A stretch of DNA of 64,000 nt from a virus (taxonomy: Duplodnaviria; Heunggongvirae; Uroviricota; Caudoviricetes). The stretch is from IMG/VR virus record IMGVR_UViG_3300029305_001878, positions 64,001 to 128,000 of that record; one strand, 5' to 3'. A model generated the notes under the pieces. That model had not been told where the DNA came from. It made no database searches and was given only the letters and a program-made list of their open reading frames with translations. Shown piece after piece: positions 24,301 through 57,670 of this stretch (within the stretch, counting starts at the first letter, position 1; every line of letters begins with the position of its first letter). The translations under genes and the position numbers were made by a program.

Positions 24301-27010
24301 CAGCATTAAATAACTCTACATTAGTTGCTGCACCTGCATAACTCTCTCCTAAAAGTTTATTTGTAACTACTTGTCTTATAGTTTGACCTTCAGTTGCTTT
24401 AAGTCCAAAAACAGATGCTAATAAAGTAGGAATAAATCCTCCTTCAATAGATTTAGATATTGCTGAAATTCCAGTAGAAAGAGCAGAGAATCCATTAATA
24501 ATAGAAGGTAAAGACATACTAACAGATAACATTACACTACTAAATTTTTCACCAAAACTTAAATCTTCATTGTTTAAAACCTAAATTGCACTGTGTAATC
24601 CTATAAAACCTGCGGTTAAAGATGTTACGCCTTCTATAGTAGAAGATAATCCTTCTGAAAATATTTCAGTTGTATCTTTTTCATTAAAATTACCATTAAG
24701 ATTTTCATTTATGTCTTGGATGACTTTACCGTGCTCTTCATCTTTTTTCTTTTTTTCTGCATCTAAATCAGTACCTTCTTGCAGATTTCTTGCTAAATTG
24801 CGAGCCTCTTCTCGACCTTCAGTTAATCCATTAATATAATCATCTAATGCGTGAGACTGTTCTTTAAATCCGCCAGTTGTATTTTCTAATTCTTCATCTA
24901 ATTTTCTATTTGCTTCTGCTATTGCATCTACATCGCCTTTGGCTTCACGAACTTTTCTTTTATAATTTTCAATTATTTTTATCTACTCATCAGTTGCACC
25001 ATACTCTTGAAGTTTTGCTTTACCTAAGCCTTTAAAATCCTTGCTCATTACGCGTTTTCGTAATTCATCTTTTTTTGGATTATTACTATTTAAATCTTGC
25101 TAATATAAACTATTAATTTGTTCGATATAATCTTGATGACCTGACTAAATTAATCTATCTTCTATTGCTACTCTATCATTTTTATTATTAGATATATTCT
25201 AACTAATTGCTACACGCTATTCAGATAAATTATTAGCAACTCCCATTTTTTCTTTAATTAAATTTAAAGAAAATTCATCTATTTCATTATTATTTACCTT
25301 ATTTGCTAATTCGTTTGTCCACGCTGATTGATTCTGTAAATTAGCAAAAGCAATATCATTAGTTCGGCCAAAATCTGCATTTAACAAAGCCTCATTTGCT
25401 TCATCTTGCATACGTCTAGCCGTTCCTTTTACTCCATCTGTAATAATAGGTAAATTATTTATTGAACGACTAATTTCTTTAGTTAAATTCGGGCCTAATC
25501 CCCTTAATAATGCCGAACCTACGACTGCTAAAACTCCTGGTAAACCTCCAAGAGAGTCAATTAATTTTTCAATTATTCCTAAAGTTCCTTCTAAACCATT
25601 ATTAATACCTATAAAGAAATCTTCATCAATTAAACTATCATAAATGCCTTCTGCGGCCGCGCGCACACGCTTACTTGAGGCTTCCCAACTTTCAGCGTAA
25701 ACTTCCGCCTGTCTTTCTAATTCTCCAGTAGAAGAATAAGCAGTATTTAAATTTTCTTGGAATGTACTCCAATTATCCATTAATGCGATTAATTGAGCAT
25801 ATTGACGTACGCCTGCTACAGTTTGCGCGGTTGCGATTTGAGTATCTTTACTTAAAGTTCCCCATTTAGCACCTAATTCATTTAAAATAACATCCATTTG
25901 CTTTACTTCGCCATTGGCATCTTTAATACTGATACCAATCTTATCTAAAGCCTATGAATATTTATTTAAAGTAGTGCCATCATCCATAGTTTCTCCCAGA
26001 TTCAAACCTTGAACACGAGAGAATAATGTTTTTAAAGCGTTACCAACTACATCTGCGTTTTGACGAGTTTCGGCAGTGATAGTAGCAAGAGCAGTAGTTG
26101 CATATTCATAACTTAAACCTACAGTTTCTGCTACTGCTGCGAATTTCTCTAATCCAGTTGCAATTTCATCAGTACTAGAAGCGGTTGCCGCACCTAACGC
26201 AGTCATAACATCAGCATAGTATTCTAATGATTTACTGCCATTATCAAAGTTATTCCAAATAGCAGTCAGATAGTCAGATACTTCTTTTACAGATTCGCCA
26301 GTAACATTTGATACTTTTGTTGTAATATTAGTTCTTGCTTTTACTTCTGAATCACTTAAACCCTATTGATAGTAAATTAATGATGCATCAGTATAAGCAG
26401 TGGTAGTTACGCTTAATGCCTTTGCTGCTTTATTGGCTTCTTTAGCAAATTTAGCCATCTATTCAGCATTCTATCCACTAACAATTCTAATATTATTTAA
26501 TGATTTATTTAAATCTTGAGCATATCCATATGAAGTCTATAAAGCACCCATAAAGCCATGCATCATACTTGAAGAAAATTGCCACTTAATTGTATTTTTC
26601 ATAGTAGTGGCAAAATCCTATAGCATTTTATTACTCTTTTTTAAAGGTAATTCTGCCGTCGAAATTGACTGTGCTAATTTTAAAAAAGTTTTCTAGCCTT
26701 CAATACCTAGACTGGAAAGTTCTCTTGAATAATCACTTAAACTTTTTCCTGATTTGGATAAAGACTATGAAAATTTAGAAATATCTAATTTGCCAGTATT
26801 TACATTTGTCGCACTTTTTATAGCCGCTTTTAAAGAGGTTACTGTATTTAAAGCATCTTTAAAATCTGCGTTGATTTGCTATCCAGCACTATTTGTTGCT
26901 GGTTGTTTTAAAAGTGAATCAAGACTATGCTATAAATTTTCTAATTGCGCTTTAGCCTACTTTACGTCCGCAGTCATTACTAACTACGCACTATAAACCC
27001 TATCAGCCAT
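18374..27010 (-). CDS. tail tape measure protein (giant, up to ~2880 codons; TP901-type core, TM segment, coiled coils), TAG-rich
   Basis: ATG 27008-27010 with GAAAGGAG RBS. Ten frame-2 fragments (25952, 25217, 24119, 23408, 22457, 20861, 19964, 19250, 18374…) are separated by TAG. The hydrophobic block …IIIIGAIAAAIALLIKAI… lies in 24119..24532. TAA at 18374. The listed frame-1 ORF 18904..19119 is spurious. Confidence 0.45.
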
Positions 27011-27054
27011 ATAGATATTACTCCTTTCACTCTTTTATTTTTATATATAAAACG

Positions 27055-45870: not shown

Positions 45871-45967
45871 GTTATCAAAAAGCTATGAATAATTTATTTA
45901 CTGGTGGATATGTGGAAAATGGTAGTAGTGGAATCTTAATAAAAGAGCCGAACATAATCCTATAACG

Positions 45968-46000
45968 GTCTCGTGGGTGTGTGCCCACGAGATTTTTTTA
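45968..46000 (+). terminator. intrinsic terminator ending the 43.6-45.9 kb plus-strand module
   Basis: ctcgtgggtgtgtgcccacgag hairpin plus T7. Confidence 0.6.
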
Positions 46001-46297
46001 TCGTTATTCGAAATTTAAAATAATTTCTCGTAATCCGAAATCTAAAAATGATTTCAAGATTGTTTTGGTCAGGCGAAAGACTTTAACACATTAAAGAAAA
46101 AAATTTTCACGAAACCCACCCCCCCCTGTATCTGAAAAAACTATACAAAAAGTATTGACAATATTTCAGAAAAAACTATGCTTCCTTTCACCTAGCACCC
46201 CTATCAATCAGCGGCGCGTCCAGGGGCCACACGCGCCGAATTTCAATAGTTTAAACGATTTCCCACTTTTCTTTAACGAATTAAAGTGCTAAAGTCA

Positions 46298-46485
46298 AAC
46301 AAACGTTTTTCCCGAATCCGCACTTCATTTGACTAAATCGTTAAAGAATACACTAAAAACTAAAACAAACGATTTTCCCGATTCCAAACTTCATTTGACT
46401 AAATCGCTAAAGAATACGCTAATTATTAAAACAAACGATTCTCCCCTTTTTCTTTATTTGACTAAATCGTTAAAGTCGCGCACGA
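46298..46485. repeat. about 63-bp tandem repeat x3 (core TTCATTTGACTAAATCGYTAAAG) in a ~1-kb non-coding region
   Basis: Units at about 46298-46364, 46365-46430 and 46431-46485. The listed ORF 46329..46586 is just a translation of this repeat. Confidence 0.6.
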
Positions 46486-46582
46486 GCCTTGAGTGCCCTA
46501 ACTTTAGCGAATTAAAGTGCTACAGCAATAAATCGCTAAAGCGTTTGCAGGAAAACTTGCAAAAAAATTTTCCTAAAACCTC

Positions 46583-46698
46583 TTGACAAAAAGCGCACGA
46601 TGTGATACAATAAAGACAGTTAAGAGAGGTACACAAAATAAAAAAAAGAAAAAAAAATAAAAAAAACTCTTGACAAAGTAAACACCATTTGATATAAT
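46583..46698 (+). promoter_or_regulatory. two tandem consensus sigma70 promoters plus the start of a ~150-nt T-poor purine-rich leader
   Basis: TTGACA 46583-88 with TACAAT 46606-11. TTGACA 46670-75 with TATAAT 46693-98. Both have 17-nt spacers. Confidence 0.55.
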
Positions 46699-46857
46699 AA
46701 AGACAGATAAAAGAGATGAGCCAAGGCGGACGAAGTAAGCGAGAGCCGAACCAAGAACGCAAGGTAAAAACAAGACAGGATGTGCCGAGAGTGAGAGGGC
46801 AAAGCCTAAGATGCACAAAGCCACTTGTTGCTCACCAAATGAAAGGAAGTAATTACT

Positions 46858-47235
46858 ATGATGCATACTATTAACGAACTGTACAAAATCGATGGCGCAA
46901 AGTTCTACACCGCCGACTACATCATCAAGCACAACATCCCCAAGGCTAAGTCTTATAATGACACTAATGGCTGGAGCAAGTGTTATGGTTTGGGAACAGA
47001 CAGAGGCACAAAGAACATTCACACTGCTGATGGTGTAAAGGTTGTCTACACCTACGGTGAAAAGACCTACTTTGACACAGCAGAAGAGAGAGATGCCTAC
47101 AGAGTACAGCAGAACATCGCAAGGGCAGAACTTAACAAAAAGAACAAACTGCTCAAGGCTATCAACAGCCATTATCAGACTATGAGCGTTGAAGAACTTG
47201 AGGAAGTGCTAAACAACATCAAAGAGAGAGGTTGA
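46858..47235 (+). CDS. early hypothetical protein (125 aa)
   Basis: AAAGGAAG RBS. TGA stop lies inside a terminator hairpin (gagagagg…cctctctc). Confidence 0.55.
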   Translation: MMHTINELYKIDGAKFYTADYIIKHNIPKAKSYNDTNGWSKCYGLGTDRGTKNIHTADGVKVVYTYGEKTYFDTAEERDAYRVQQNIARAELNKKNKLLKAINSHYQTMSVEELEEVLNNIKERG

Positions 47236-47424
47236 TAAAAACCTCTCTCTTTCTTTGTCTGCGTGAGCGGTCGCCGCACTCCTAAATTCACTACGCTAAA
47301 GTGCTAAACAAATAAAGAGAGAAAAAATATGTAAAAAAAAATAAAAAAAATTTTCCCAAAACTATTGACAAATCCAGAAGTAAATGATATAATAAAGACA
47401 CAAAGAACAAAGGAGAGATACACA

Positions 47425-47664
47425 ATGTATACTATCACCGACACAATGGCAAGACACATCGAATACATCAAGCAGAGCGCAAAGAACTGCGCACTCTATC
47501 TGCGCAAGGACGCTATGGATATTCTGCTCGACAAGGCTTTTCACGCTTACCTTTTTGTATGCTGTGCAAACAACAAGTCTGTTGACTTCACACCTGCTGA
47601 ATTTATCCAGGAGTGCAAGGCAAATGAAAACTTCTTCAATTACTATCTGGCTTACGCTGAATAA
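47425..47664 (+). CDS. early hypothetical protein (79 aa)
   Basis: Promoter TTGACA 47365-70 / TATAAT 47388-93, AAAGGAGAG RBS and ATG 47425. TAA plus hairpin terminator. Confidence 0.55.
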   Translation: MYTITDTMARHIEYIKQSAKNCALYLRKDAMDILLDKAFHAYLFVCCANNKSVDFTPAEFIQECKANENFFNYYLAYAE

Positions 47665-48031
47665 GAGAGTGTGAAAAACACTCTCTTTTCTTTTGTCAGC
47701 GTGATCGGCCACCACAGCCCATACTTCACCCAATTAAAGTGCTAAACAAATAAAGAGAAGAAAAATATGCGGAAAAATAGTTAAAAAAATTTCCTGAAAC
47801 CCCTTGACAACAAGACCATCTTGTGATATACTTAATACATCCAATAGAGAAAGGAACACGAACTATGAAGAAACTAATTCTCGATATCATTACTATTATT
47901 GCGCGATCTGCTTGACTTGGGTTGCGTGGTCTTTCGTGGACATTGTCAGCGATAACTGCGACCCCAATCCACAACACGCAAACATCAATGCTTTTGTGCT
48001 ACTGGTTGATTAAGAAAGAGAGGTAAAAAAA

Positions 48032-48466
48032 ATGAAAGAAATGCTTTTCATCCTTGGTTGTGTATTTGTTACGGTCTTGTTCTTCGCTGCAATCATTTTC
48101 TTCACTGATAGGATTACTGGATGGTACTATGATAATCGGAATAAGAAGCGTGAAAAAGAACATCCTGAATTGTACAAGTTGTTTGATGCGGTCAATGAAA
48201 AATGCAGAGATTGTTGCCGTTGGTATAATGAACAGATTGCACCCAAGAAAAGAGAGATTGACAACATTCTCAAAGATTGGAATTATTACACTAATGAAAG
48301 AAGAGCGCAAAAAGAAGCAGAATTGAAGAAATTGCGCGCAGACCTTCAAATCGCTGAAACAATCGACAAAACTTTGGAAAGTGAACTTGTTGAACTGCGG
48401 GAGCAAACAAAGGACTATGTAAAAGAACATAATGTTGAATGGGCAAAGAAAATGGGCTGGACTTGA
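48032..48466 (+). CDS. early membrane-anchored coiled-coil protein (144 aa)
   Basis: AGAGAGG RBS. N-terminal TM helix FILGCVFVTVLFFAAIIFF. TGA inside hairpin atgggctgg…cagcccat. Confidence 0.5.
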   Translation: MKEMLFILGCVFVTVLFFAAIIFFTDRITGWYYDNRNKKREKEHPELYKLFDAVNEKCRDCCRWYNEQIAPKKREIDNILKDWNYYTNERRAQKEAELKKLRADLQIAETIDKTLESELVELREQTKDYVKEHNVEWAKKMGWT

Positions 48467-48623
48467 CAGCCCATTTTTTTCGTAGTCGGTCACTGACCCC
48501 GGAACTTCAGCGAACTAAAGTGCTAAAGAAAAATAATTGCAAAATATTGAAAAATAGTTGTTGACAAATGCTTCCTAATAGTGTATACTATAGACAGATA
48601 GAAAAGCAAAGGAGATAATAAAA

Positions 48624-48821
48624 ATGATGGATTACAGACACAGCGCATACAATATCTACACCGGCGAGATTATCAACTGCGAGAAGCCCAACTACTTGAA
48701 GCGACAGGTTGCCTACACCGGCAAGGTCAACAAGGACTATTTCAATACCAATAAAGGTGGTTGGAGATGGTCACACGACTTCGGCAAGAAGTGGGAAAGC
48801 GAAGGTTTTCCGACTAAGTGA
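48624..48821 (+). CDS. early small protein (65 aa)
   Basis: Promoter TTGACA ~48562, AAAGGAGA RBS, TGA and a terminator (aaaagggga…tcccctttttt). Confidence 0.5.
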   Translation: MMDYRHSAYNIYTGEIINCEKPNYLKRQVAYTGKVNKDYFNTNKGGWRWSHDFGKKWESEGFPTK

Positions 48822-48922
48822 AAAAGGGGATAAAAAAAATCCCCTTTTTTCTAAAAAAGGTATTGACAAATCAATCAATTGGGTGTATAATAAAGACAGA
48901 TAAAAGAAAGGGGAACACCAAA

Positions 48923-49078
48923 ATGAAAAACAACTACTTCGACACTCTCAACTGGAACTACATCGAAACCTGCGCCGAAGCAGGCATTTCCGTAGACTGC
49001 TACATCGATGATAGCCGCACTTGGATGAAGCAGATCTGGAATGATGGATTTGTAGAAATCCACGAAATTGGGGCTTGA
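48923..49078 (+). CDS. early small protein (51 aa)
   Basis: Promoter TTGACA ~48853 / TATAAT, AAAGGGGAA RBS and ATG 48923. The TGA stop lies inside the ggggcTTGACAaaagcccc hairpin, which is also the next promoter's -35. Confidence 0.45.
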   Translation: MKNNYFDTLNWNYIETCAEAGISVDCYIDDSRTWMKQIWNDGFVEIHEIGA

Positions 49079-49127
49079 CAAAAGCCCCAAGGTATGATAT
49101 ACTTAATACAACAAATAAAGAAAGGAA

Positions 49128-49433
49128 ATGAAAATAATGAAAACTAATAACACTATCAACTTTACCGAAATTTGTAAACTGGATGATATGCTTTGTTTGG
49201 CTGATCTGCCCCACACTTTCTCCCACCTGCACGATGGCTATCAGATTAAGTTCTATGCCGACGGGATGAAAACTATTTATCTTGATGATGTAGTCATTCA
49301 TTCTAGCTCCCACGGTCACGAAAAAGGATTACTTGAAACCTACAATTTGAATGCTTGCTCTGGTTATGAAACCGCTGAACAGGTTTTCAAAAGTTGGGTC
49401 AGATGGTATAAGAAAGCAAATAAAAAGGGTTGA
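49128..49433 (+). CDS. early hypothetical protein (about 98-101 aa)
   Basis: AAAGGAAATG RBS. The second ATG, at 49137, is the likelier start. The TGA stop sits inside the agggTTGACAacttcaaccct hairpin. Confidence 0.5.
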   Translation: MKIMKTNNTINFTEICKLDDMLCLADLPHTFSHLHDGYQIKFYADGMKTIYLDDVVIHSSSHGHEKGLLETYNLNACSGYETAEQVFKSWVRWYKKANKKG

Positions 49434-49492
49434 CAACTTCAACCCTTTATGCTATAATAAAACCATCCAATAGAGAAAGGAAATAAATAAAA

Positions 49493-49708
49493 ATGGAAAA
49501 AATGGTAATGACTGAAACCCTCGCTAATACACTGATGGATGCGCTTGCCTGCGTTGCGCTTTCTGCTACTGGCGGAGTTGATCCCGACAACATCAATGAT
49601 GAACAAGTAGAGTATGCTCAAGAATACGCAAGAAAGACTTTCTGCGAACTGCTCGACGCTTGGGAAGAATCGACTGGCAAAGAATGGGACATTGAAGTAG
49701 AAAATTAA
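49493..49708 (+). CDS. early acidic small protein (71 aa)
   Basis: Promoter TTGACA ~49432 / TATAAT, AGAGAAAGGAAA RBS, TAA and a terminator (gcgagggg…ccctcgc plus T-run). Confidence 0.5.
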   Translation: MEKMVMTETLANTLMDALACVALSATGGVDPDNINDEQVEYAQEYARKTFCELLDAWEESTGKEWDIEVEN

Positions 49709-49799
49709 GCGAGGGGAAACCCTCGCTTCTTTTTTTCTAAATTAAAAAATTACCTATTGACAAATTTATAAAAATATGATATAATATATATATAAAAAA

Positions 49800-49900
49800 T
49801 AAAAAATTTATTTTACTTTAGCGATTTAATTGACTAAAGTAAAAATAAAAAATTTATTTTGAAATTTTATTTACTTTAGCGATTTAATTGACTAAAGTGC
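49800..49900. repeat. 60-bp direct repeat x2, each containing the palindrome ACTTTAGCGATTTAATTGACTAAAGT
   Basis: Copies at about 49812-49840 and 49871-49898. A hairpin cggctcgct…agcgagccg follows at 49903-49945. Confidence 0.55.
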
Positions 49901-50129
49901 GGCGGCTCGCTACCGGGCGCCCTTTCCCTGCAGCGAGCCGAGTTTCACAAAGCAGGGCATTCACACTTTAAATCGTTGAAGTAGGCACTTTCACACATTA
50001 AAGCGCTAATTCCCAAAACTCCCCCAAATTTTTGTGCATTTTGACGAAAACTATTTTTTCAAAATCGGTTGACAAATCCGCATTTATCGAGTAAAATAAG
50101 GTATAACCTAAATCAAGGAGGTCACTACA

Positions 50130-50315
50130 ATGACTACTCTGTTAACTGCTGATTTTGATACCTACACTGCTATTGAAGGTTATGTATTCGATCTTCTGGC
50201 AGACGAAGAAACTGAAGTTGTTCTCTCTGAAATTCAGACTTTTGCTGCTGACCTCGGTGTAGCCTTTACTGAATGGGATTTGACTTCCTTGATGATGGAT
50301 TTTGAAGAAATTTAA
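50130..50315 (+). CDS. early acidic small protein (61 aa)
   Basis: Promoter TTGACA ~50069, CAAGGAGG RBS and TAA. Confidence 0.5.
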   Translation: MTTLLTADFDTYTAIEGYVFDLLADEETEVVLSEIQTFAADLGVAFTEWDLTSLMMDFEEI

Positions 50316-50332
50316 TTTTGGGGGTAATAATT

Positions 50333-50524
50333 ATGTATAAGTACTATTTCCACATTATTGATAACGAATTCAATTCTGAATACGACTATGAGGGTTATTT
50401 TGATAACCACGAAGAAGTCGAACCTTTCATTCAAGATAATGAAAAGGTTGGTAATATTATTACCATTATTTCTCCCTATTATGAATATGTAGACAAGGCA
50501 GATTGCCCGTCTTGTTATCTTTAA
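50333..50524 (+). CDS. early small protein (63 aa, C-terminal CPSC)
   Basis: GGGGG RBS and ATG 50333. The ORF track begins at an upstream TTG. TAA stop. Confidence 0.45.
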   Translation: MYKYYFHIIDNEFNSEYDYEGYFDNHEEVEPFIQDNEKVGNIITIISPYYEYVDKADCPSCYL

Positions 50525-50532
50525 TTTCTCTT

Positions 50533-50575
50533 TTCGTCAAAATGCACAAAAATTTTATTTGTGCATTTTGACGAA
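50533..50575. repeat. perfect ~40-bp palindrome TTCGTCAAAATGCACAAA-N-TTTGTGCATTTTGACGAA
   Basis: Seen directly. Belongs to an 18-mer family also found at ~50028, 50940, 50975, 51018 (inverted), 55285 and 55322. Confidence 0.6.
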
Positions 50576-50599
50576 AATTGGGCCGGCCGGAGACGAACG

Positions 50600-51045
50600 C
50601 GCAGAGGTAGTTGTAGGCCGAACTTTCACACGCTAAAGCGTTAGCGAATTAAAGCGTGAAAGCGGCACTTCATCGATGTAAAGCGCTAAATCCCGAAAGC
50701 GCACTTCATTTGACTAAATCGCTAAAGTGATTGTTTATTTAACTTTTCACTTTTCTTTATTTGACTAAAGCGCTAAATCGGTAAAGTGATTGTTTGTTTA
50801 ACTTTTCACTTTTATTCATTTGACTAAAGCGCTAAAGTCCGAAAGTGCCCAAGGGCCCCGGAACTTTCACGAATTAAAGTGCTACAGAATTAAATCGCTA
50901 AAGTGGCACTTCATTACGCTAAAGCGCTAATTCCCTAAAGTTTTGTGCATTTTGACGAATTTATTTGACTAAATCGCTAAATTTGTGCAATTTGACGAAT
51001 TCATTTGACTAAAGTATTAAATTCGTCAAATTGCACAAACTTTTC
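50600..51045. repeat. ~450-bp non-coding repeat field (TTGACTAAAG/CGCTAAAG units, a direct repeat TTAACTTTTCACTTTT(C/A)TTTATTTGACTAAAGCGCTAAA x2, three TTTGTGCA(A/T)TTTGACGAA copies)
   Basis: No ORF with an RBS. Shares its core with the 46298-46485 repeats. Confidence 0.55.
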
Positions 51046-51113
51046 AAAATCGCTTGCAATTCGTAAAATATGTAGTATAATAGTACCATAAGATAAAGAA
51101 AGGAATTGATACT

Positions 51114-51590
51114 ATGAAGAACTTGCCGAAGATGATTTGTTTCGATATGGATGGAACGATTGCCGACCTGTACTCTGTCAGTGGATGGCTTGAGGACTTG
51201 AGAGCGGAAAACCCTAGACCCTACCTTGAAGCCACCCCAATGTGCGATATGTGCGCACTGCGTGAAGTGTTGGAGCAGTTCCGCCAGATGGGAACAGAAA
51301 TTCGTATCATCACTTGGCTGTCTATGAACAGCACCGAAGAATACAAGGAAGCAGTACGAACCGCAAAGTTGGCTTGGCTTAACAAGTGGAATTTCCTGTT
51401 TGACAATTTCCACGGCGTGCAGTATGGAGCAACAAAGGCAGACAGTATTCGCAAGTATTTGTCCGATGGTGAAACTGCTATTTTGATTGACGATAACGCA
51501 AAGGTAAGAAGCGGTTGGCATATGGGCGAAGCAGTAAACCCGATCGAAACTGATATCGTTGCTTTCCTGCGTGGACTTTTGGAAGATTAA
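51114..51590 (+). CDS. HAD-superfamily phosphatase / 5'-nucleotidase-like protein
   Basis: Motif I FDMDGTIADL (DxDGT) and motif IV ILIDDNAK. Promoter TTGCAA-N-TATAAT ~51048-51078. Conserved translation-initiation region GAAAGGAATTGATACTATG. Confidence 0.6.
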   Translation: MKNLPKMICFDMDGTIADLYSVSGWLEDLRAENPRPYLEATPMCDMCALREVLEQFRQMGTEIRIITWLSMNSTEEYKEAVRTAKLAWLNKWNFLFDNFHGVQYGATKADSIRKYLSDGETAILIDDNAKVRSGWHMGEAVNPIETDIVAFLRGLLED

Positions 51591-51710
51591 AAAAAATCTT
51601 CCAAAATTCCGTTGAAGTGGTTGACAAGCGGCGGATTATGTGATATCATATAAGAGCAATCAAGAGCGATGGCAAACTTGATTGACATTATAAAAAGGAT
51701 CTGATAATTT

Positions 51711-52463
51711 ATGAACATTGACCGCAGAAAGCACTATCTTTTGTGCGTGGACACCGAAGCTGCAAATTGCATCCAAGAGGGATGGAAAATTAGCAAGAAC
51801 TCGCTTCCATATGACATTGGTTTTGCAGTGATGGATACACACGGGATGATTTATGACAAGTTTTCCTATGTCAATTCTGATGTGTTCTATGGTATGCCCG
51901 AACTGATGGAAAGCGCATACTATGCGAAGAAGTTGCCCCGATACCGTGAAGAAATCGCTTGCGGTTTGCGGACTGTGGCTGATACTTGGACAATTCGCAG
52001 AAAGATGCTTGAAGTCTGCGAAACATACGGAATTAAAGAGGTCGTAGCGCATAACGCAAGTTTTGACTATGACACACTAAATAACATTGTTCGATATCTG
52101 ACTGGTTCTAAAGTTCGGTATTGGTTTCCGTTTGGGACTGTCGAATGGTGGGACAGTATGAAAATGGCACAATCGGTTATTTGTAAAATGCCGATGTACA
52201 AAGAACACTGCAAAGATGTACTCGGACTGAGCAGAGCAAGCGCAAAAGCGGAAAATCTTTACAGATGGATTATTCAAAATCCCGATTTCACAGAAGCGCA
52301 TACAGGACTTGAGGATGTTCTCATTGAAAGTCAAATCGTTGCATACTGTTACAGACAGCACAAGACAATGAACAAGCGACTTTTTGCGAATGATTTTCCC
52401 GAAGCAACGGACTTCCAAATTGCGCTGATGCGCTCCATCAAAGACCACCCGATGCTTTACTGA
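51711..52463 (+). CDS. DEDDh (DnaQ/RNase T-like) 3'-5' exonuclease
   Basis: Exo I LLCVDTEA, Exo II VVAHNASFDYDTL and Exo III HTGLEDVLIESQI. Two upstream TTGACA promoters (51632, 51693). TGA plus terminator (ggggagaaaaaaatctccccc). Confidence 0.65.
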   Translation: MNIDRRKHYLLCVDTEAANCIQEGWKISKNSLPYDIGFAVMDTHGMIYDKFSYVNSDVFYGMPELMESAYYAKKLPRYREEIACGLRTVADTWTIRRKMLEVCETYGIKEVVAHNASFDYDTLNNIVRYLTGSKVRYWFPFGTVEWWDSMKMAQSVICKMPMYKEHCKDVLGLSRASAKAENLYRWIIQNPDFTEAHTGLEDVLIESQIVAYCYRQHKTMNKRLFANDFPEATDFQIALMRSIKDHPMLY

Positions 52464-52617
52464 TCGAAATATGGGGAGAAAAAAATCTCCCCCAATTTCA
52501 AAAATATTTCTTGACTTTTGAAAGTCTATCGCTTATAATAGTTAGTGTAAGGGATAACCCCTCACAAAATAAATCAAAGACAGGTTCAAGTCTTAAAAAC
52601 CGAAAGGAATTGATACT

Positions 52618-53037
52618 ATGAAAAAGTTCACTAAGAGAGAAAGCCTGACTGCCATTTCCAATGTCCTGAATGAACTGCTTGTCGCAGAGGGCAACACGGT
52701 TCTCGCCAATGTCAAGGACAAGGAATACACCGTACAGGATGCATTGGAATTTTGTTCCAACGAAATCAGCCTGTTGGACAAGAAGAACGGCACGGTAAAG
52801 AAGCCGACCGACAAGCAGATGCAGAACGAAAACTACAAGGAAGCAATTCTGCGTTATCTGCGAGAGGTTGCCCCGGAACACAAGGCAATCGCCGAAATTT
52901 GGGATAGCGTGGAAATGCTCGCAAGTAATCCCGATATGACCGGTCAGAGAATTTCCGCTCTGATTACACAGTTGAAGAACGAGAACAAGATTGTTCGAGT
53001 TGAGGAAAAGCGGAAAGCCTATTTCAAGGCAGTATAA
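52618..53037 (+). CDS. winged-helix DNA-binding protein, paralog A (139 aa)
   Basis: C-terminal ~70 aa (…YLREVAPEHKAIAEIWD…PDMTGQRISALITQLKNENKIVRVEEKRKAYFKA) are near-identical to 54407..54817, including at the DNA level. Promoter ~52510 contains the palindrome GACTTTTGAAAGTC. Conserved translation-initiation region. Confidence 0.55.
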   Translation: MKKFTKRESLTAISNVLNELLVAEGNTVLANVKDKEYTVQDALEFCSNEISLLDKKNGTVKKPTDKQMQNENYKEAILRYLREVAPEHKAIAEIWDSVEMLASNPDMTGQRISALITQLKNENKIVRVEEKRKAYFKAV

Positions 53038-53140
53038 TTTGAAGCGGTGGGGATTGAAAAAATCCCCACCGACCCCTTGACAGCAACGGAAATATTTGCT
53101 ATAATTAAGGGGCAAGATAACTAAAGGAGATGAAAACCGA

Positions 53141-53500
53141 ATGACAAACGAACAGAAAAAGCGTTTGGAGTTTACAATGAAAACTCTGAATATGACCGAA
53201 GCCGAAGTGCTTGCAATGTGGGAAGAGGACAAAGCAATCGACAAGGGCGAAAAACTTTATGAACTTGACCCCGAACTGGAAGCAGGAGCGAAAAAGGCTC
53301 GGCAGGCTGATCGCAAGAAGAACAGCGAACCTACCAAGAGAGAGCGCAAAGAGGACACCGACAAAACGGAAATCCTAAATGCTCTAATGGATAGCGTAAG
53401 TTCCAAAGCGGAGAAAATCGAAAAGACCAAAAGCGGCGAATTTGAATTTGTTTTCAATGGTCGCAAATTCAAGGTCGTACTTTCTGCCCCTCGCAAGTGA
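53141..53500 (+). CDS. early basic/acidic hypothetical protein (119 aa)
   Basis: Promoter TTGACA ~53075 / TATAAT, AAAGGAGATG RBS and TGA. Confidence 0.5.
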   Translation: MTNEQKKRLEFTMKTLNMTEAEVLAMWEEDKAIDKGEKLYELDPELEAGAKKARQADRKKNSEPTKRERKEDTDKTEILNALMDSVSSKAEKIEKTKSGEFEFVFNGRKFKVVLSAPRK

Positions 53501-53529
53501 GGGGCAGAAAAGAAAGTGAGGTAAAAAAA

Positions 53530-53715
53530 ATGACAAGGGAAATGCTAGAAATTGAATACCAGACTGCTTGGGAAACAATGCAGGAAGCAGAGCGAAATTA
53601 TAAAATGGCTCGCGCAAACTTTCACGATGTTGCAGGATTGCTAATGGAAAAGTTGATGCTTGAAAATGTGGATGTGCTTGCGCGATTGCGCGAAGCAGAC
53701 ACCCCTACGATTTAA
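53530..53715 (+). CDS. early small coiled-coil protein (61 aa)
   Basis: GTGAGG RBS and ATG 53530. TAA, followed by the bidirectional terminator gtgtgcgcggctggcgcacac. Confidence 0.45.
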   Translation: MTREMLEIEYQTAWETMQEAERNYKMARANFHDVAGLLMEKLMLENVDVLARLREADTPTI

Positions 53716-53760
53716 CCAATTAAAGTGTGCGCGGCTGGCGCACACTTTATTTTATTAAAG

Positions 53761-53816
53761 TTATCGATATACTTTTATCGATATATTTCATTTTTATCGA
53801 TATATTTTTATCGATA
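53761..53816. repeat. four iterons of the palindromic 9-mer TTATCGATA at 15-18-bp spacing
   Basis: Copies at 53761, 53775, 53794 and 53808. Flanked by two hairpins and the motif TTTAGTCAAATGAAG. Confidence 0.6.
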
Positions 53817-53835
53817 ACTTTAACGCTTTAGTCAA

Positions 53836-53915
53836 ATGAAGCGCCGGGCGCTGACGTACGATGCTCCCACGTCAGCGCCGGAATTTCCATTATACCACAC
53901 CGCCAGCATTTTGTC
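53836..53915 (-). promoter_or_regulatory. leftward promoter (TTGACA-N17-TATAAT on the minus strand) firing through a 12-bp-stem hairpin and the iteron array
   Basis: Revcomp of 53880-53912 is gcTTGACAaaatgctggcggtgtggTATAATgg. Hairpin cgggcgctgacgt…acgtcagcgccgg at 53840-53880. No minus-strand ORF downstream. Confidence 0.4.
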
Positions 53916-53923
53916 AAGCAAAA

Positions 53924-54035
53924 AGTTGCACAAAAATAAATAAATTATTTATCCCGAAATTGTGCAACTTTTTCTGCAAAAGTTACAAATTGTAATTGAC
54001 TTCCTATGAGGTCGGTGTTATAATGTTAGTGTCAA
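53924..54035 (+). promoter_or_regulatory. 13-bp-arm palindrome AAAAGTTGCACAA-N25-TTGTGCAACTTTT plus GTTACAAATTGTAA palindrome overlapping promoter TTGACT-N17-TATAAT
   Basis: An almost identical copy of the whole unit lies at 55452-55535. Confidence 0.55.
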
Positions 54036-54150
54036 GGGGAGATACCTCTGAGCCACATCTATGGTGTGGGGCTACGGTTGGAAGTAGCAATAGACCTTGG
54101 TGCTCATAAAATTGCAATAGATGAGTTGCATAGGAACGCACGAGGATGTG
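54036..54150 (+). ncRNA. candidate small non-coding transcript 1 (promoter-proximal, conserved 5' GTTAGTGTCAAGGGGA leader)
   Basis: A consensus promoter immediately upstream and a second full promoter (TTGACA 54165) downstream. No RBS-led ORF. Contains the hairpin gtgaaaaaattttcac. Confidence 0.25.
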
Positions 54151-54195
54151 AAAAAATTTTCACAGAAACCCCTTGACAAACTCCACCAAGTGTGG

Positions 54196-54310
54196 TACAA
54201 TAAAGGTGTCAAGGGGAATGAGAGACTATCGTCCCCAGTTACAAGGGAGACCACAGGGGATTACATCGGCCGAGTAAGTGGTGTTGCTTGAAAAGAAATT
54301 TGAGAAAATT
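54196..54310 (+). ncRNA. candidate small non-coding transcript 2 (5' GGTGTCAAGGGGAATG)
   Basis: Lies between promoter TTGACA 54165 / TACAAT and promoter TTGACA 54325 / TATAAT. No RBS-led ORF. Contains the hairpin ggggaatgagagactatcgtcccc. Confidence 0.25.
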
Positions 54311-54406
54311 TCTGAAAACCCCTTGACAAATCACCAAGTCTATGATATAATATCAATGTAATCAAGGGAAGGAAAACCCTTAAAAAACCAGAAAGGAATT
54401 GATACT

Positions 54407-54817
54407 ATGGCTAACAAGATGGTAAAGAGAGATTATTTCACTGCTCTGCGTGGCTTCATCGAAGCCCATCCCGAAGTGCATTTCGGCACTGATAAGCATC
54501 CCGACATCCCTATCGGTGATATGCTTGCGTTCGTGGATAACGAACTGACCCTGCTTGCTTCCAAGTCTGGGGCAATCAAGAAGCCCACTGAAAAGCAGAC
54601 TCAGAATGAGGTTTACAAGACCGCTATTCTGCAGTATCTGCGCGAAGTGGCTCCCGAGCATAAGTCCATCGCTGAAATTTGGGATGGCGTGGAAGCCCTT
54701 TCCACTAACCCCGATATGACGGGTCAGAGAATTTCCGCTCTGATTACGCAGTTGAAGAATGACAATCTGATTGTCAGAATCGAAGAGAAGCGCAAGGCTT
54801 ACTTTAAGGCTGCGTAA
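54407..54817 (+). CDS. winged-helix DNA-binding protein, paralog B (136 aa)
   Basis: Same C-terminal domain as 52618..53037. Conserved translation-initiation region GAAAGGAATTGATACTATG. TAA plus terminator (ggggggctaagccccccg). Confidence 0.55.
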   Translation: MANKMVKRDYFTALRGFIEAHPEVHFGTDKHPDIPIGDMLAFVDNELTLLASKSGAIKKPTEKQTQNEVYKTAILQYLREVAPEHKSIAEIWDGVEALSTNPDMTGQRISALITQLKNDNLIVRIEEKRKAYFKAA

Positions 54818-54872
54818 ATGGGCTAACGCCCATTCGGAAATCGGGGGGCTAAGCCCCCCGAAACTTTAATCA

Positions 54873-55289
54873 ATGAAAGGACAAGAAATGTTAACAACTG
54901 AAAAAATTAAAGCCATGGACAAAAAGGCTCAAGAAAAAGGCAAGGAATTTTTTTATTGGGGCTTTTACATTGATTATCTCGGCAATATTATTTGGAAGCC
55001 CGGCACAGCTGCAATTCTGTGGAGACGCAAGAAACAACATGACCGAGATTATTTGAAACCCACGTGTAACCACCGCATGATGGACGGCACAGAATTCCAT
55101 TATTTGTGGGCTATTCCTTTGGCAAAATGGACAACCCGCAAAGTCGAAGAATCTACAATCAACAGACTGAAAGCCGAAAATTTTGGCGAATACATTCTGA
55201 ATGACCGTTTTGTTGATGTAAATCACGCTGAAAGCGTTGATATTATCGTCCGCAAAACCTATACAATTCCCCTTTGTTGTGCAATTTGA
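54873..55289 (+). CDS. early hypothetical protein (133-138 aa)
   Basis: AAAGGACAAGAAATG: the second ATG, at 54888, is the better start. TGA stop. Confidence 0.45.
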   Translation: MKGQEMLTTEKIKAMDKKAQEKGKEFFYWGFYIDYLGNIIWKPGTAAILWRRKKQHDRDYLKPTCNHRMMDGTEFHYLWAIPLAKWTTRKVEESTINRLKAENFGEYILNDRFVDVNHAESVDIIVRKTYTIPLCCAI

Positions 55290-55336
55290 CGAATCCGCCC
55301 CGTAGAAAATGGGGCGGATTTTTTGTGCATTTTGCC

Positions 55337-55440
55337 TATTGACAAATCCAAGCAGATGTGGTATAATGGCCGGCCCTCCACGTGCGCTCGGGCCGGTTTT
55401 TCCATTATACCACGCCTCCCGCATTTTTGTCAAGCGTTTT
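55337..55440. promoter_or_regulatory. face-to-face consensus promoters sharing a GC hairpin (plus: TTGACA-N17-TATAAT 55340-55368; minus: revcomp of 55400-55432)
   Basis: The ggccggccc…gggccgg hairpin plus T5 sits between the two convergent -10 boxes. The minus copy matches the 53880-53912 promoter. Confidence 0.45.
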
Positions 55441-55451
55441 TATAAAAAAAG

Positions 55452-55535
55452 TTGCACAAAATAAAATCCCGAATTTGTGCAACTTTTTCTTGAAAAGTTA
55501 CAATTTGTAATTGACTTCTATGGCTTCTGGATGTA
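55452..55535 (+). promoter_or_regulatory. second copy of the TTGTGCAAC palindrome plus promoter cassette
   Basis: aaaaagttgcacaaa…aatttgtgcaactttt, then gttacaatttgtaattgactt…TATAAT. Confidence 0.5.
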
Positions 55536-55575
55536 TAATGTTAATGTAATCAAAAGAGAGTTCTAGAGGATACCA

Positions 55576-55833
55576 ATGAAAATAATGTCGTTTTGGGTTG
55601 AAAGGGTGGTAAAAATGAAAGAAAAGTTGATCAGACTGTGGGAACGCAAAGAGCGCTACATCATCAATGAATTTTTATTGGAAAACCGCAAAATACTCTT
55701 TTCTCAGGCTTTTGGTGCTTTGGAGTTCGCTATGGAAATGCTTGATAACTGGGATGAAGAGTCCAAACTTATCGATCTGTGGGAAAATGAATGGAAAGCA
55801 AGACTGGAGGATAAAATCTATGAAGTGCGTTGA
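55576..55833 (+). CDS. early hypothetical protein (72-85 aa)
   Basis: Two candidate ATGs (55576, 55615). TGA stop. Confidence 0.4.
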   Translation: MKIMSFWVERVVKMKEKLIRLWERKERYIINEFLLENRKILFSQAFGALEFAMEMLDNWDEESKLIDLWENEWKARLEDKIYEVR

Positions 55834-55945
55834 TTGTGTAATGAGTTGGATAGACCCCGGCGAAGAATACCCCACTTGTCACGCAGACCCTAACTGGCCT
55901 GCACCTTGTGAATATGACGATTATGAAGAAGAGAGGGAATATTAA
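55820..55945 (+). CDS. small Cys-rich zinc-ribbon-like protein (41 aa)
   Basis: GGAGGA RBS and ATG 55820. MKCVDCV…PTCH…PCEY. Confidence 0.35.
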   Translation: MKCVDCVMSWIDPGEEYPTCHADPNWPAPCEYDDYEEEREY

Positions 55946-55946
55946 G

Positions 55947-56105
55947 ATGGAAATTAAATGTCCTTATTGCGGAAGTAAAGAGTACGAATGTTATGATAGA
56001 GTCGGTGATGGAACAATGCAGCCTGAAGACTTATGCGTTTGTGAGGCGTGTGATAAAGAATTTTCCATAGTCTATGCGGTTGACTATATCAAGAAAGAGA
56101 GTTGA
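55947..56105 (+). CDS. small zinc-ribbon protein (52 aa; CPYC…CEAC)
   Basis: AGAGGGAA RBS and ATG 55947. TGA inside a terminator (gagagtt…aactctc). Confidence 0.45.
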   Translation: MEIKCPYCGSKEYECYDRVGDGTMQPEDLCVCEACDKEFSIVYAVDYIKKES

Positions 56106-56172
56106 AAAAACTCTCTTTTTTTTATGCAAATTGACTATTGACAAATTGCGGCGACCTGTGGTATAATAAAGA

Positions 56173-56335
56173 GATAGGGCTTGCCTTCGGCGGGTCGGCC
56201 GCGGCAGCAAGGACCCGAATTCCCGATCGGGTAACCATATGCAAATTTTTCTGTGCATCAAGCGATATATGCCTTTATTCCCGTGCATCCCGAAACCTTA
56301 ATCTACTTAATGGGCGTTTTACGCCCATTAAAGAA
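56173..56335 (+). ncRNA. candidate GC-rich structured sRNA (~160 nt) with its own extended -10 promoter and terminator
   Basis: Promoter TTGACA 56140 / TGgTATAAT. Stems gccTTCGgc, ggccgcggc and cccgatcggg. Ends at aatgggcg…cgcccatt. The only internal ATG ORF is 20 aa and lacks an RBS. The listed ORF 56138..56347 starts at the TTG of the -35 box. Confidence 0.3.
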
Positions 56336-56346
56336 ATCCACACTTG

Positions 56347-56540
56347 ACTTTTTTTAAAAAATATGATATAATATTAAAAAAAACCTAAATTTTTGCCGCT
56401 TTTCCGCCCTTTTTGCCTAATCCAGAAGCAGAAAACTTGACTTTTCTTAAAAAATATGATATAATTATAAAAAAAACCTAAAAATTTCGCGCAAAAACGC
56501 ACTTTTCTTGACAAAATTAAAAAAAAATGGTATAATATTT
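56347..56540 (+). promoter_or_regulatory. three tandem near-consensus promoters upstream of gene 56575
   Basis: TTGACT-N17-TATAAT at ~56347 and ~56437. TTGACA-N-TGgTATAAT at ~56508. Confidence 0.5.
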
Positions 56541-56574
56541 ATAGAAAATAAGAAAAAAATGGAGGATTTATTAA

Positions 56575-56987: not shown

Positions 56988-57178
56988 ATAACCTACCTCC
57001 TAGTTAGCCCAGTTATGAGGACAGGAGGTAGGACGGAGACGGAAAATTTTATAGTGGGTAGGTGTCCCGATCGGGGCCACACCTACCCACTCATTTTTTT
57101 TATTTATTCACTCATTTTTTTTATTTATTCACTCATTTTTTTTATTTATCTACTTATTTCTTTTTATTTATTTTATAT
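56988..57178. terminator. twin GC hairpins (bidirectional terminator) followed by three 22-bp tandem repeats ACTCATTTTTTTTATTTATTC
   Basis: acctacctcct…aggaggtagg and gggtaggtgtcccgatcggggccacacctaccc. The repeats lie at 57095-57178. Confidence 0.5.
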
Positions 57179-57211
57179 CCAATAGCAAAGTAATTATAAT
57201 CTTTTTTAATC

Positions 57212-57670
57212 TTACTACCCGTTGTGCGGAGCACAACACAATACCTGCGCTCTCTCTTGCTCTTCCTTTAACAACTTATTTCCAATAGCAAGTCCATTCT
57301 TTATAAGTTCACTTGCCTTCTGCGCTAATACCTCAATATTCAAAAATTCTTCCTTACTTAATTGTGGCGCGTCCTTCATAGTATATGTATATTCTTTTTC
57401 ATCTGCATTTGCGCTCGTGTTCCTGTATGTATTTAAACGCACATAAGGAATCTGCATATTATAAATCTTAATTCCACCATCATTCCTACAATGACCTGTT
57501 ATATTATTATTTCGCACTAACGTAGGATATCCTTCTACTGTAGGAAAGTCTTTTATTACATAATATGAATTGCTATCGCAAGTCATTCTTTCGAACTGTT
57601 CTCTTGTTACTACATACACATCTTTATTACTATACTTACCAATTAATCCACTACTATTTGCAATATCCAT
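57212..57670 (-). CDS. hypothetical protein (152 codons; TAG as penultimate codon, then TAA)
   Basis: ORF 57215..57670 ends in TAG 57215-17, followed in frame by TAA 57212-14. AT-rich. Confidence 0.4.

Follow-up and report, generated by a model that had tools for sequence, protein, structure and literature searches.

What is the function of a stretch of about 1 kb that carries repeats and no genes, lying between the late and early modules of a large phage? The question is raised by a 64,000-nt stretch of a Caudoviricetes genome (IMG/VR record IMGVR_UViG_3300029305_001878, positions 64,001 to 128,000), referred to here as the window and covering 64 kb of a genome of perhaps ~180 kb, as the contigs of relatives are 176-188 kb long. 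For the repeats of its gene-free region (45.87-46.86 kb) a sequence-only reading had proposed a replication origin, centromere-like partition sites or a regulator-binding array. The third proposal is the one favoured here, since the sites match the operator of HisR, the histidine repressor of Firmicutes. Judging from sequence, the repeated phage element, which usually consists of two boxes at an 8-bp offset, rather probably represents operator-type sites of this repressor.

A repeated early element and its likeness to the HisR operator

The tandem repeats reported at 46260-46560 were recovered by Tandem Repeats Finder, which was used for all tandem arrays, at 46297-46475 (period 66, 2.8 copies, 83% matches). 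Three units of ~63 bp had been described, and the core-to-core spacings are indeed 66 and 63 bp, while the array as a whole has a 66-bp period and falls short of three full copies. The core TTGACTAAAKCGCTAAAG was matched 11 times in the window with at most 3 mismatches (0.17 expected), a count reached in none of 100 shuffles, and a looser core, TAAA[GT][CT]G[CT]TAAA, occurred 17 times, always within 46282-53830. A 27-nt matrix built from the aligned phage copies placed 25 non-overlapping sites between 46268 and 53844, compared with 0-1 in shuffles, which raises to ~25 the roughly ten recurrences first counted. These sites were spread across at least 8 intergenic regions and all 25 were located in non-coding DNA, although non-coding DNA makes up only 45.5% of the interval 45871-56573 (P ~3e-9).

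A single copy reads ACTTYA-N6-TAAAKYG-CTAAAG, and the copies fall into two subtypes, A and B. The former, exemplified by AACTTTAGCGAATTAAAGTG-CTACAG at 46500, is found at both ends of the tandem array, 3' of three early terminators and within two fields (49.96-50.01 and 50.6-50.9 kb). To subtype B, ACTTCATTTGACTAAAKCGCTAAAG, belong the three tandem units as well as the copies at 50701-50996 and at 53818. Among more distant relatives the element takes the form of a clear 24-bp palindrome, CTTTAGCG-CTTTAAAG-CGCTAAAG, which as read from its sequence holds TTTA-N6-TAAA twice, 8 bp apart.

HisR, a member of the TrpR family, corresponds to YerC of B. subtilis, and in Firmicutes it has the 20-bp palindrome cacTTTAnnnnnnTAAAgtg as its operator (Ashniev et al. 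2022, PMC9413887). The R. gnavus protein binds CAGTTTAGTATAGTAAAGT only when L-histidine is present, HisR occurs in 174 of 195 Eubacteriales genomes, and TrpR half-sites (GNACT) have an 8-bp spacer (PMC9413887). With mismatches counted against the consensus cacTTTA-N6-TAAAgtg, the window contained 26 matches with at most 3 mismatches (6.75 expected; 26 reached in none of 100 shuffles), including 20 within 46.08-53.84 kb. A second matrix was made from 41 predicted Eubacteriales HisR sites (PMC9413887 supplement 4) and included no phage sequences. At 16.0 bits, the median of the published sites, this matrix found 4 sites in 46-54 kb (0.01 expected) and none in the other 56 kb; at 13.1 bits it found 8 (0.06 expected) and again none, and at 8 bits 24 (1.76 expected) and 10. 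The best phage copies have the same 20-bp palindrome as HisR operators and, at 17-18 bits, score like published sites (PMC9413887).

In a converse test, the phage-copy pattern CTTTAGCGNNTTAAAKCGNTAAAG was scanned over 185,579 bacterial genomes, one per species. Fourteen loci were found compared with ~2 expected by chance, five of them phage-like and nine being single sites in bacterial contigs. The five phage-like loci were promoter-rich with many copies, including L103 and L114 with 33-34 matrix matches in 8 kb. For five of the nine bacterial loci the site was upstream of an identifiable gene and close to the ribosome-binding site (RBS): before hisZ-hisG (L112), before a TrpR-related YerC/YecD gene that has hisZ and hisG after it (L109; TIGR02531, 134.6 bits), before polar amino-acid ABC transporters (L111 and L105, the latter with a hisR homologue nearby) and before paaK (L113). 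With the exception of paaK, these target genes belong to the HisR regulon described by Ashniev et al. (PMC9413887). A -10-like TATAAT was located just upstream of the site in L112, L113 and L105, and double boxes with the 8-bp offset were also seen in bacterial operators before hisZG, hisR and amino-acid transporter genes. The remaining loci (L101, L104, L106 and L108), contigs of metagenome-assembled genomes (MAGs) from Actinobacteria, Bacteroidaceae and Saccharibacteria, each carried a single 24-bp double HisR-type box with no adjoining histidine gene identified. Phage-like contigs with arrays were binned with Clostridia MAGs, including Acutalibacteraceae. Likenesses to CIRCE, cre, parS, Spo0A, LytTR and KorB sites were considered and set aside on spacing or sequence.

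Layout of the window and of related loci

The late genes of the window (4600-43560) are on the minus strand and form long open reading frames (ORFs) only if TAG is read as sense, the longest product being 2886 aa (18374-27034), while the early region on the plus strand (46.5-56.6 kb) uses the standard code; no tRNA genes were found in the 64 kb. Approximately 25 near-consensus TTGACA-17-TATAAT promoters on the plus strand of the early region each drive one or a few small genes, most of which have an intrinsic terminator 3' of them. Proteins of thirty plus-strand small genes (46.9-57.0 and 59.4-63.5 kb) were scanned against Pfam and ten of these also against PHROGs, with almost no matches except for an NT5C/HAD-like phosphatase and an exonuclease-like protein. 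Structural genes matched Pfam families named after YonB, YonD and YonG of SPbeta. The closest described phages are distant ones, namely ~140-kb Enterococcus phages and the TAG-recoded phAss-1 group with predicted hosts among the Clostridia. There was no DNA match to the window among GenBank phages, and neither the core motif nor the exonuclease-like protein was found in IMG/VR.

A small-gene module with a DUF7352 gene, upstream of the gene-free region, ends in an intrinsic terminator on the plus strand (45967-45994, a 12-bp stem followed by a T-run) that is conserved in L011 and L014. This terminator is followed at 46025-46190 by a conserved non-coding block (CGTAATCCGAAAT..., AAAAAAATTTTCACGAAACCC) that includes the poly-C tract at 46118-46127. 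This block aligns with relatives despite neighbouring proteins that are only ~45% identical, and it contains one HisR-like box (46079-46098, 13.0 bits on the published-site matrix) whose position is kept in L014 and L102. The block (CGTAATCCGAAAT..., AAAAAATTTTCCCGAAA..CCCCCC) occurs once per locus directly 3' of the DUF7352 module, beginning at 11224 in L011, 9148 in L014, 10664 in L016, 10614 in L017, 5596 in L018 and 4784 in L019, and it may serve in packaging, as an origin or as a special promoter. In L011, a low-GC gene of 252 aa with CxxC motifs (10462-11220) is located between the terminator and the block; it is present only in L011, L012 and L013 and looks like a mobile endonuclease-type insertion.

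A GC-rich hairpin (46212-46240, GGCGCGT...ACGCGCC, -14.6 kcal/mol) precedes the box array, so that both the hairpin and the poly-C tract of the earlier description are present, and L011 and L014 have a hairpin at the equivalent place with a different stem sequence. The array opens on the plus strand with a subtype-A double box at 46268-46296 (TTCTTTAACGAATTAAAGTG with CTAAAG 8 bp further; 2 mismatches to the consensus, 13.6 and 10.8 bits), followed by the tandem repeat of 66-bp units with one subtype-B box, ACTTCATTTGACTAAATCG(C/T)TAAAG, per unit (46320-46346, 46386-46412 and 46449-46475; 30-36 bits on the phage matrix). After a GC-rich island (46474-46498) comes the region's best box, AACTTTAGCGAATTAAAGTG, which differs from the consensus at 1 position and at 17.1 bits exceeds the median of published sites, together with further overlapping boxes (46499-46541, plus strand). 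Two tandem consensus promoters of the sigma-70 type (46583-46611 and 46670-46698, plus strand; 11/12 and 12/12 matches) then lead into a purine-rich leader of ~150 nt and the first early gene at 46858, and the box array is located upstream, at 41-315 bp from the first promoter's -35 hexamer. The absence of any ORF with an RBS was upheld by an RBS-based scan of 45871-46857. The ORF listed at 46329-46586, which had been regarded as an artefact, is one: it starts with TTG without an RBS, its translation is a repeated peptide (LTKSLKNTL...) and it has no counterpart in the closest relatives, L011 and L014.

The copies announced elsewhere in the early region, both behind terminators and in distant fields, were likewise found. 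Single boxes on the plus strand at 47283-47309, 47721-47747 and 48502-48528 (14.7, 10.4 and 14.8 bits on the published-site matrix) lie ~30 bp behind the terminators at 47.25, 47.69 and 48.47 kb, the first of them following gene 46858-47235, and orthologous single boxes are present in L011, L014 and L015. The field at 49816-50011 includes two nearly perfect palindromic boxes, ACTTTAGCGATTTAATTGACTAAAGT, at 49816 and 49874, which are 58 bp apart and form an inverted repeat in the AT-rich leader of promoter 49757-49785, followed by a GC hairpin and boxes at 49964 and 49986, the latter with 16.4 bits. Eleven boxes form a plus-strand field at 50620-51022, upstream of promoter 51054-51081 and of the NT5C/HAD-like gene at 51114, with arrays of period 59 (50714-50836) and period 40 (50942-51023); two of its boxes, at 50621 and 50907, reach 17.1 and 17.8 bits with the published-site matrix. 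In L005, which comes from a different sample and is otherwise 99.9% identical, the array at 50714-50836 is shorter by one 59-bp unit, and the unit number at 50.7 kb is a copy-number polymorphism among strains. An additional inverted box, beyond those first listed, was found on the minus strand at 53818-53844 in an ORF-less unit composed of promoter 53917-53889, a GC hairpin, the box, four TATCGATA repeats and terminator 53749-53721, and equivalent units occur in L011 and L035.

Other repeats and transcription units of the early region were observed alongside these fields. The four TATCGATA copies (53761-53821, ~14 bp spacing) form two 29-nt inverted arms, and the terminator of their unit is common to the upstream plus-strand gene. 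A further ORF-less unit (55290-55433) has two perfect promoters facing each other across a 30-bp GC hairpin (55339-55433), and at least three units like these two were seen in L035; small RNAs or convergent-transcription insulators are candidate roles for the units at 53721-53917 and 55290-55433. A second repeat family, TTTGTGCAWTTTGACGAA, has 7 copies (50026-50050, 50531-50555, 50558-50577, 50937-51044 and 55279), and the perfect 25-bp inverted pair 50026-50050/50531-50555 encloses a cassette of two genes (50130-50524) that L011 and L014 lack. Window positions 45895, 45952, 49795 and 57172-57235 are start or end points of several independent contigs. The ends at 49795 and 57.2 kb fall on repeats, including a 21-bp tandem repeat at 57088-57172, while the end at 45952 was seen in two samples with no obvious repeat there. 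The starts at 45895 and 45952 might mark genome ends, a reading that was not adopted because the remaining contig ends are scattered at repeats.

Conservation of position had been named as a check on the repeats and was found in related phages. Loci L001-L010, which share the first early protein with the window, are 99.9% identical to it and with the exception of L005 uninformative for this purpose. The moderately related L011-L015, found through homologues of the DUF7352 protein, keep the gene-free region, the GC hairpin, the element array, the single copies behind orthologous terminators and the field before the NT5C-like gene. In the distant L016-L020 the conserved non-coding block is kept and the element is absent, with TTGTGCA-N3-TGCACAA palindromes present instead, which in distant relatives adjoin the -35 hexamer of some promoters. 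A metagenome scan with the NT5C-like protein yielded 80 further loci, five of which had many element copies (L035, L061, L070, L073 and L080). At 13 bits the published-site matrix found 6-33 sites in each of 11 related loci (L011 7, L014 7, L035 12, L061 12, L073 15, L070 8, L080 8, L102 6, L103 26, L107 13 and L114 33) compared with 0.0-0.2 expected and with 0-1 in 17 others, and the sites of these relatives are at orthologous places, either in the gene-free region that follows the DUF7352 gene or downstream of early terminators.

Placement of the sites, candidate binders and rival readings

Where the sites stand relative to promoters bears on how they could work. Across 12 phage loci, none of 205 HisR-like sites was centred between -60 and +30 of a promoter-like site, 14 were at +30 to +60, and most were 100-300 bp upstream of a promoter, which places them just behind the preceding terminator. 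Within the window only the sites at 49.8 kb (the leader of promoter 49757) and 53.8 kb (the ORF-less minus-strand unit) are in transcribed DNA near a promoter. The classical arrangement, with an operator at the promoter blocking initiation, was thus seen in 0 of 205 cases. Because the sites are behind terminators and about 60-350 bp upstream of promoters, with none over a promoter, they do not have the position of promoter-occluding operators, and this arrangement suggests that they probably recruit or titrate histidine-loaded HisR. HisR operators in bacteria differ in number and position, as there are one to three per genome and those found here are located just 5' of the RBS, in three cases directly behind a -10-like hexamer, whereas the phage has ~25 sites within 7.6 kb, both in tandem arrays and 3' of terminators, as well as a diverged, phage-only subtype whose spacer is conserved.

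No YerC/TrpR-like ORF was found in the window or in any phage locus by tblastn or by a six-frame search with hidden Markov models in which TAG was read as sense. Since there is no TrpR-like gene in the available phage DNA, the HisR protein of the host is the simplest candidate and the likely binder as far as sequence can tell. Several points weigh against assigning the element to HisR, or to HisR alone. The subtype-B copies, which are the three tandem units (46320-46475) and six others (ACTTCATTTGACTAAAKCG), score 1-8 bits on the published-site matrix, below ~95% of the published sites sampled, and the three tandem-unit boxes reach only 3-6 bits. These boxes have 3-4 consensus mismatches with 0-1 in the TTTA/TAAA core, and published sites mostly have 3-4 as well (range 1-6, n=41); the low scores arise because the six-base spacer TTTGAC differs from the spacers of bacterial sites. 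Conservation of that spacer indicates a constraint beyond HisR alone, and another or additional reader is possible. Site polarity agrees with the direction of transcription in 21 of 24 window sites, which neither a palindromic operator nor a pure decoy needs, and the GC-rich islands that adjoin most site clusters are not accounted for by HisR. Finally, as the window represents 64 kb of the genome, a phage gene of the TrpR family could lie elsewhere.

In a rival explanation the sites are operators of a phage-encoded regulator, TrpR/YerC-like or another small DNA-binding protein encoded outside the window, that switches early units off or on, the likeness to HisR sites reflecting a captured or convergent repressor. 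A precedent exists in SPbeta, where the short element SPBRE is similarly repeated in about ten intergenic early regions of a large Firmicutes phage and is bound by MrpR (YopR), so that dispersed operators under a phage repressor are known (PMC10516654). Structural genes of the YonB/YonD/YonG type are common to SPbeta and this phage, and the conserved subtype-B spacer, not present in bacterial HisR sites, would also fit a reader of the phage's own, as would the coverage of 64 kb of the genome. SPBRE is, however, 15 bp long and located in promoter regions, and it is read by a phage-encoded recombinase-fold protein that keeps lysogeny (PMC10516654; compared by description), while the motif of the present phage belongs to a host repressor, its sites keep clear of core promoters and no lysogeny genes were seen. 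No YopR-like protein turned up in the Pfam scans of 30 early proteins, in which no search aimed at YopR was made. Two early paralogues (52618-53037, 139 aa, and 54407-54817, 136 aa) belong to a family widespread in related phages and have no Pfam match; they were modelled with a helical N-terminal part and a C-terminal winged helix (predicted local distance difference test score 89.5), with weak fold matches to forkhead, MarR, ArsR and Fur proteins (best E 4e-3). They were rejected as leading binder candidates, as their recognition helices vary widely among motif-bearing phages and similar helices occur in phages without the motif. There was also no local gene whose presence or absence correlated with that of the motif, and with no TrpR-like ORF in the window or the phage loci a phage-encoded regulator appears unlikely.

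The proposal of an origin received its only hint from relatives. In L011, L012 and L014 a pair of perfect DnaA boxes separated by 2 bp, TTATCCACAGGTTATCCACA, is located upstream of the NT5C-like gene (L011 15612-15631, L012 7682-7701 and L014 14015-14034), and the slot of this pair (TTATCCACA-GG-TTATCCACA, beside a conserved TGCACAAAC element) holds two HisR-like sites in the window (50956-51022). The element could consist of iterons of one or more origins, or of DNA entry or stop sites like those of T5, where the DNA would be opened or held by an assembly of host or phage proteins, and AT-rich DNA at 49.79-49.87 kb after a consensus promoter would suit such a role. The first-step-transfer DNA of T5 likewise has gene-free fields of ~1 kb with direct repeats (66-bp ones included), inverted ones and also palindromes, and this untranslated pre-early DNA is accompanied by DnaA boxes in pairs, a gene for a 5'-nucleotidase and an inserted HNH gene (bioRxiv 10.1101/866236). 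Both phages have a small-gene block with host promoters, sites for host proteins, a 5'-nucleotidase gene nearby and an endonuclease-like insertion, here in one relative with the 252-aa gene in the L011 gene-free region. The boxes of T5 are DnaA rather than HisR boxes, however, the injection-stop role proposed for them is itself unproven (bioRxiv 10.1101/866236), and two-step DNA entry is a property of T5 that is not known for this phage group. An origin is further opposed by the dispersal of the sites over at least 8 intergenic regions, some as single copies behind terminators, by the lack of a detected initiator gene nearby and by a GC skew that follows transcription and turns only where its direction changes, at ~43 kb. 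DnaA boxes form no cluster at the arrays (23 in the window, 21 expected) and the motif is that of a metabolic repressor and not of a known initiator, so that an origin or entry site is regarded as quite improbable.

The orientation bias of 21 in 24 sites and the transcription of some copies would be expected if the element acted in RNA, as a processing site, an antitermination site or a small-RNA seed. Copies that lie in promoter 49757's leader, and those in minus-strand units with a promoter, hairpin, box and terminator but no ORF, are in keeping with this, as are the GC hairpins that adjoin boxes. Among 119 distinct copies from 13 sources, however, 74.9% of paired arm cells were complementary compared with 75.1% in shuffles and the covariation score was 0.144 compared with 0.142. 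Each arm fits the consensus with no covariation between them, which points to a protein reading double-stranded DNA and not to an RNA helix. Searches of Rfam gave chance-level matches only, most copies are just 3' of strong intrinsic terminators in poorly transcribed DNA, and the bacterial counterpart of the sequence is a DNA operator, leaving a role in RNA very improbable. An RNA structure at 46185-46580 was also considered and rejected, as the folding z-score was -2.75 but no conserved structure was found.

Centromeres of types Ib and II are resembled by short-repeat arrays that precede promoters, the half-site GCTAAA presumably resembles the KorB operator TTTAGCSGCTAAA, and the sites might on these grounds be a partition site (parS) of a plasmid-like prophage state. 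No ParA, ParB or ribbon-helix-helix gene was seen among the scanned early proteins, nor any parA/parB or parM/parR family among the 30 scanned with Pfam. In addition the sites are dispersed and the motif is accounted for by HisR, and a centromere is hardly credible.

Possible titration of a host repressor by phage DNA

If HisR of the host is the binder, the histidine-loaded protein would occupy the arrays soon after entry of the phage DNA, and the arrays would hold it there, drawing the repressor off the one to three operators of the host chromosome. Its withdrawal would switch on histidine synthesis and uptake in the host. At the leader sites at 49.8 and 53.8 kb, bound HisR could in addition block an elongating polymerase when histidine is plentiful. 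Titration is physically plausible because a bacterial genome has 1-3 HisR sites compared with ~25 per phage genome, and more than 30 in 8 kb in some relatives. We lean towards titration over a histidine-dependent tuning of phage transcription, as read from the sequence. We infer it from the number and position of the sites, and this tempers the preference, as histidine-tuned early transcription through leader roadblocks or upstream complexes fits the data about as well.

Sites for host factors are familiar from other phages, as with the Spo0A boxes of phi29 and the LexA boxes of temperate phages, and the chromosomal locus datA titrates DnaA. These are host-regulator sites, as those considered here probably are, and serve to read the state of the cell or to lower the free regulator. 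The related loci extend the comparison to other regulators. Early intergenic cassettes of L035, L061 and L073 contain a terminator, a HisR box, two TTGTGAA-N4-TTAACAA boxes, an A-rich upstream element and a promoter, and the TTGTGAA-N4-TTAACAA boxes differ at no more than 1 position from the operator of the redox repressor Rex (7 in L035, for example the pair at 320-337 and 361-378, 8 in L061 and 15 in L073, compared with 0.0 expected). In the window Rex-like boxes are at chance level and they were seen only in relatives. Together the Rex-like, DnaA and HisR boxes suggest that the group places operators of host regulators in early non-coding DNA.

A broader possibility, which we raise tentatively and with the balance against it, is that the early regions of this phage group are DNA decoys in which operators of host regulators strip these regulators off the chromosome from the moment of DNA entry, and more so upon replication. 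The operators would differ by lineage, with HisR boxes here, Rex boxes in addition in L035, L061 and L073, and the DnaA-box pair in L011, L012 and L014. Histidine supply and fermentation genes of the host would be turned on, or host replication disturbed, without any phage protein.

A limited literature search found no HisR-box arrays on phages, no amino-acid repressor recruited by a phage and no arrays this large. If HisR binds these arrays, this would be to our knowledge the first phage known to recruit an amino-acid repressor, and it would do so with dozens of sites. A phage carrying dozens of HisR-type sites suggests, from sequence, one that senses or soaks up a metabolic regulator of its host. 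For annotation there is a caution, as a gene-free repeat field between phage modules need not be an origin. If the assignment is true, the host of these uncultivated large TAG-recoded phages of gut and rumen Clostridia must carry a HisR that recognises the motif. The Rex-like and DnaA boxes at equivalent places in sister lineages raise the wider question of whether host regulons are reprogrammed by phage decoy DNA.

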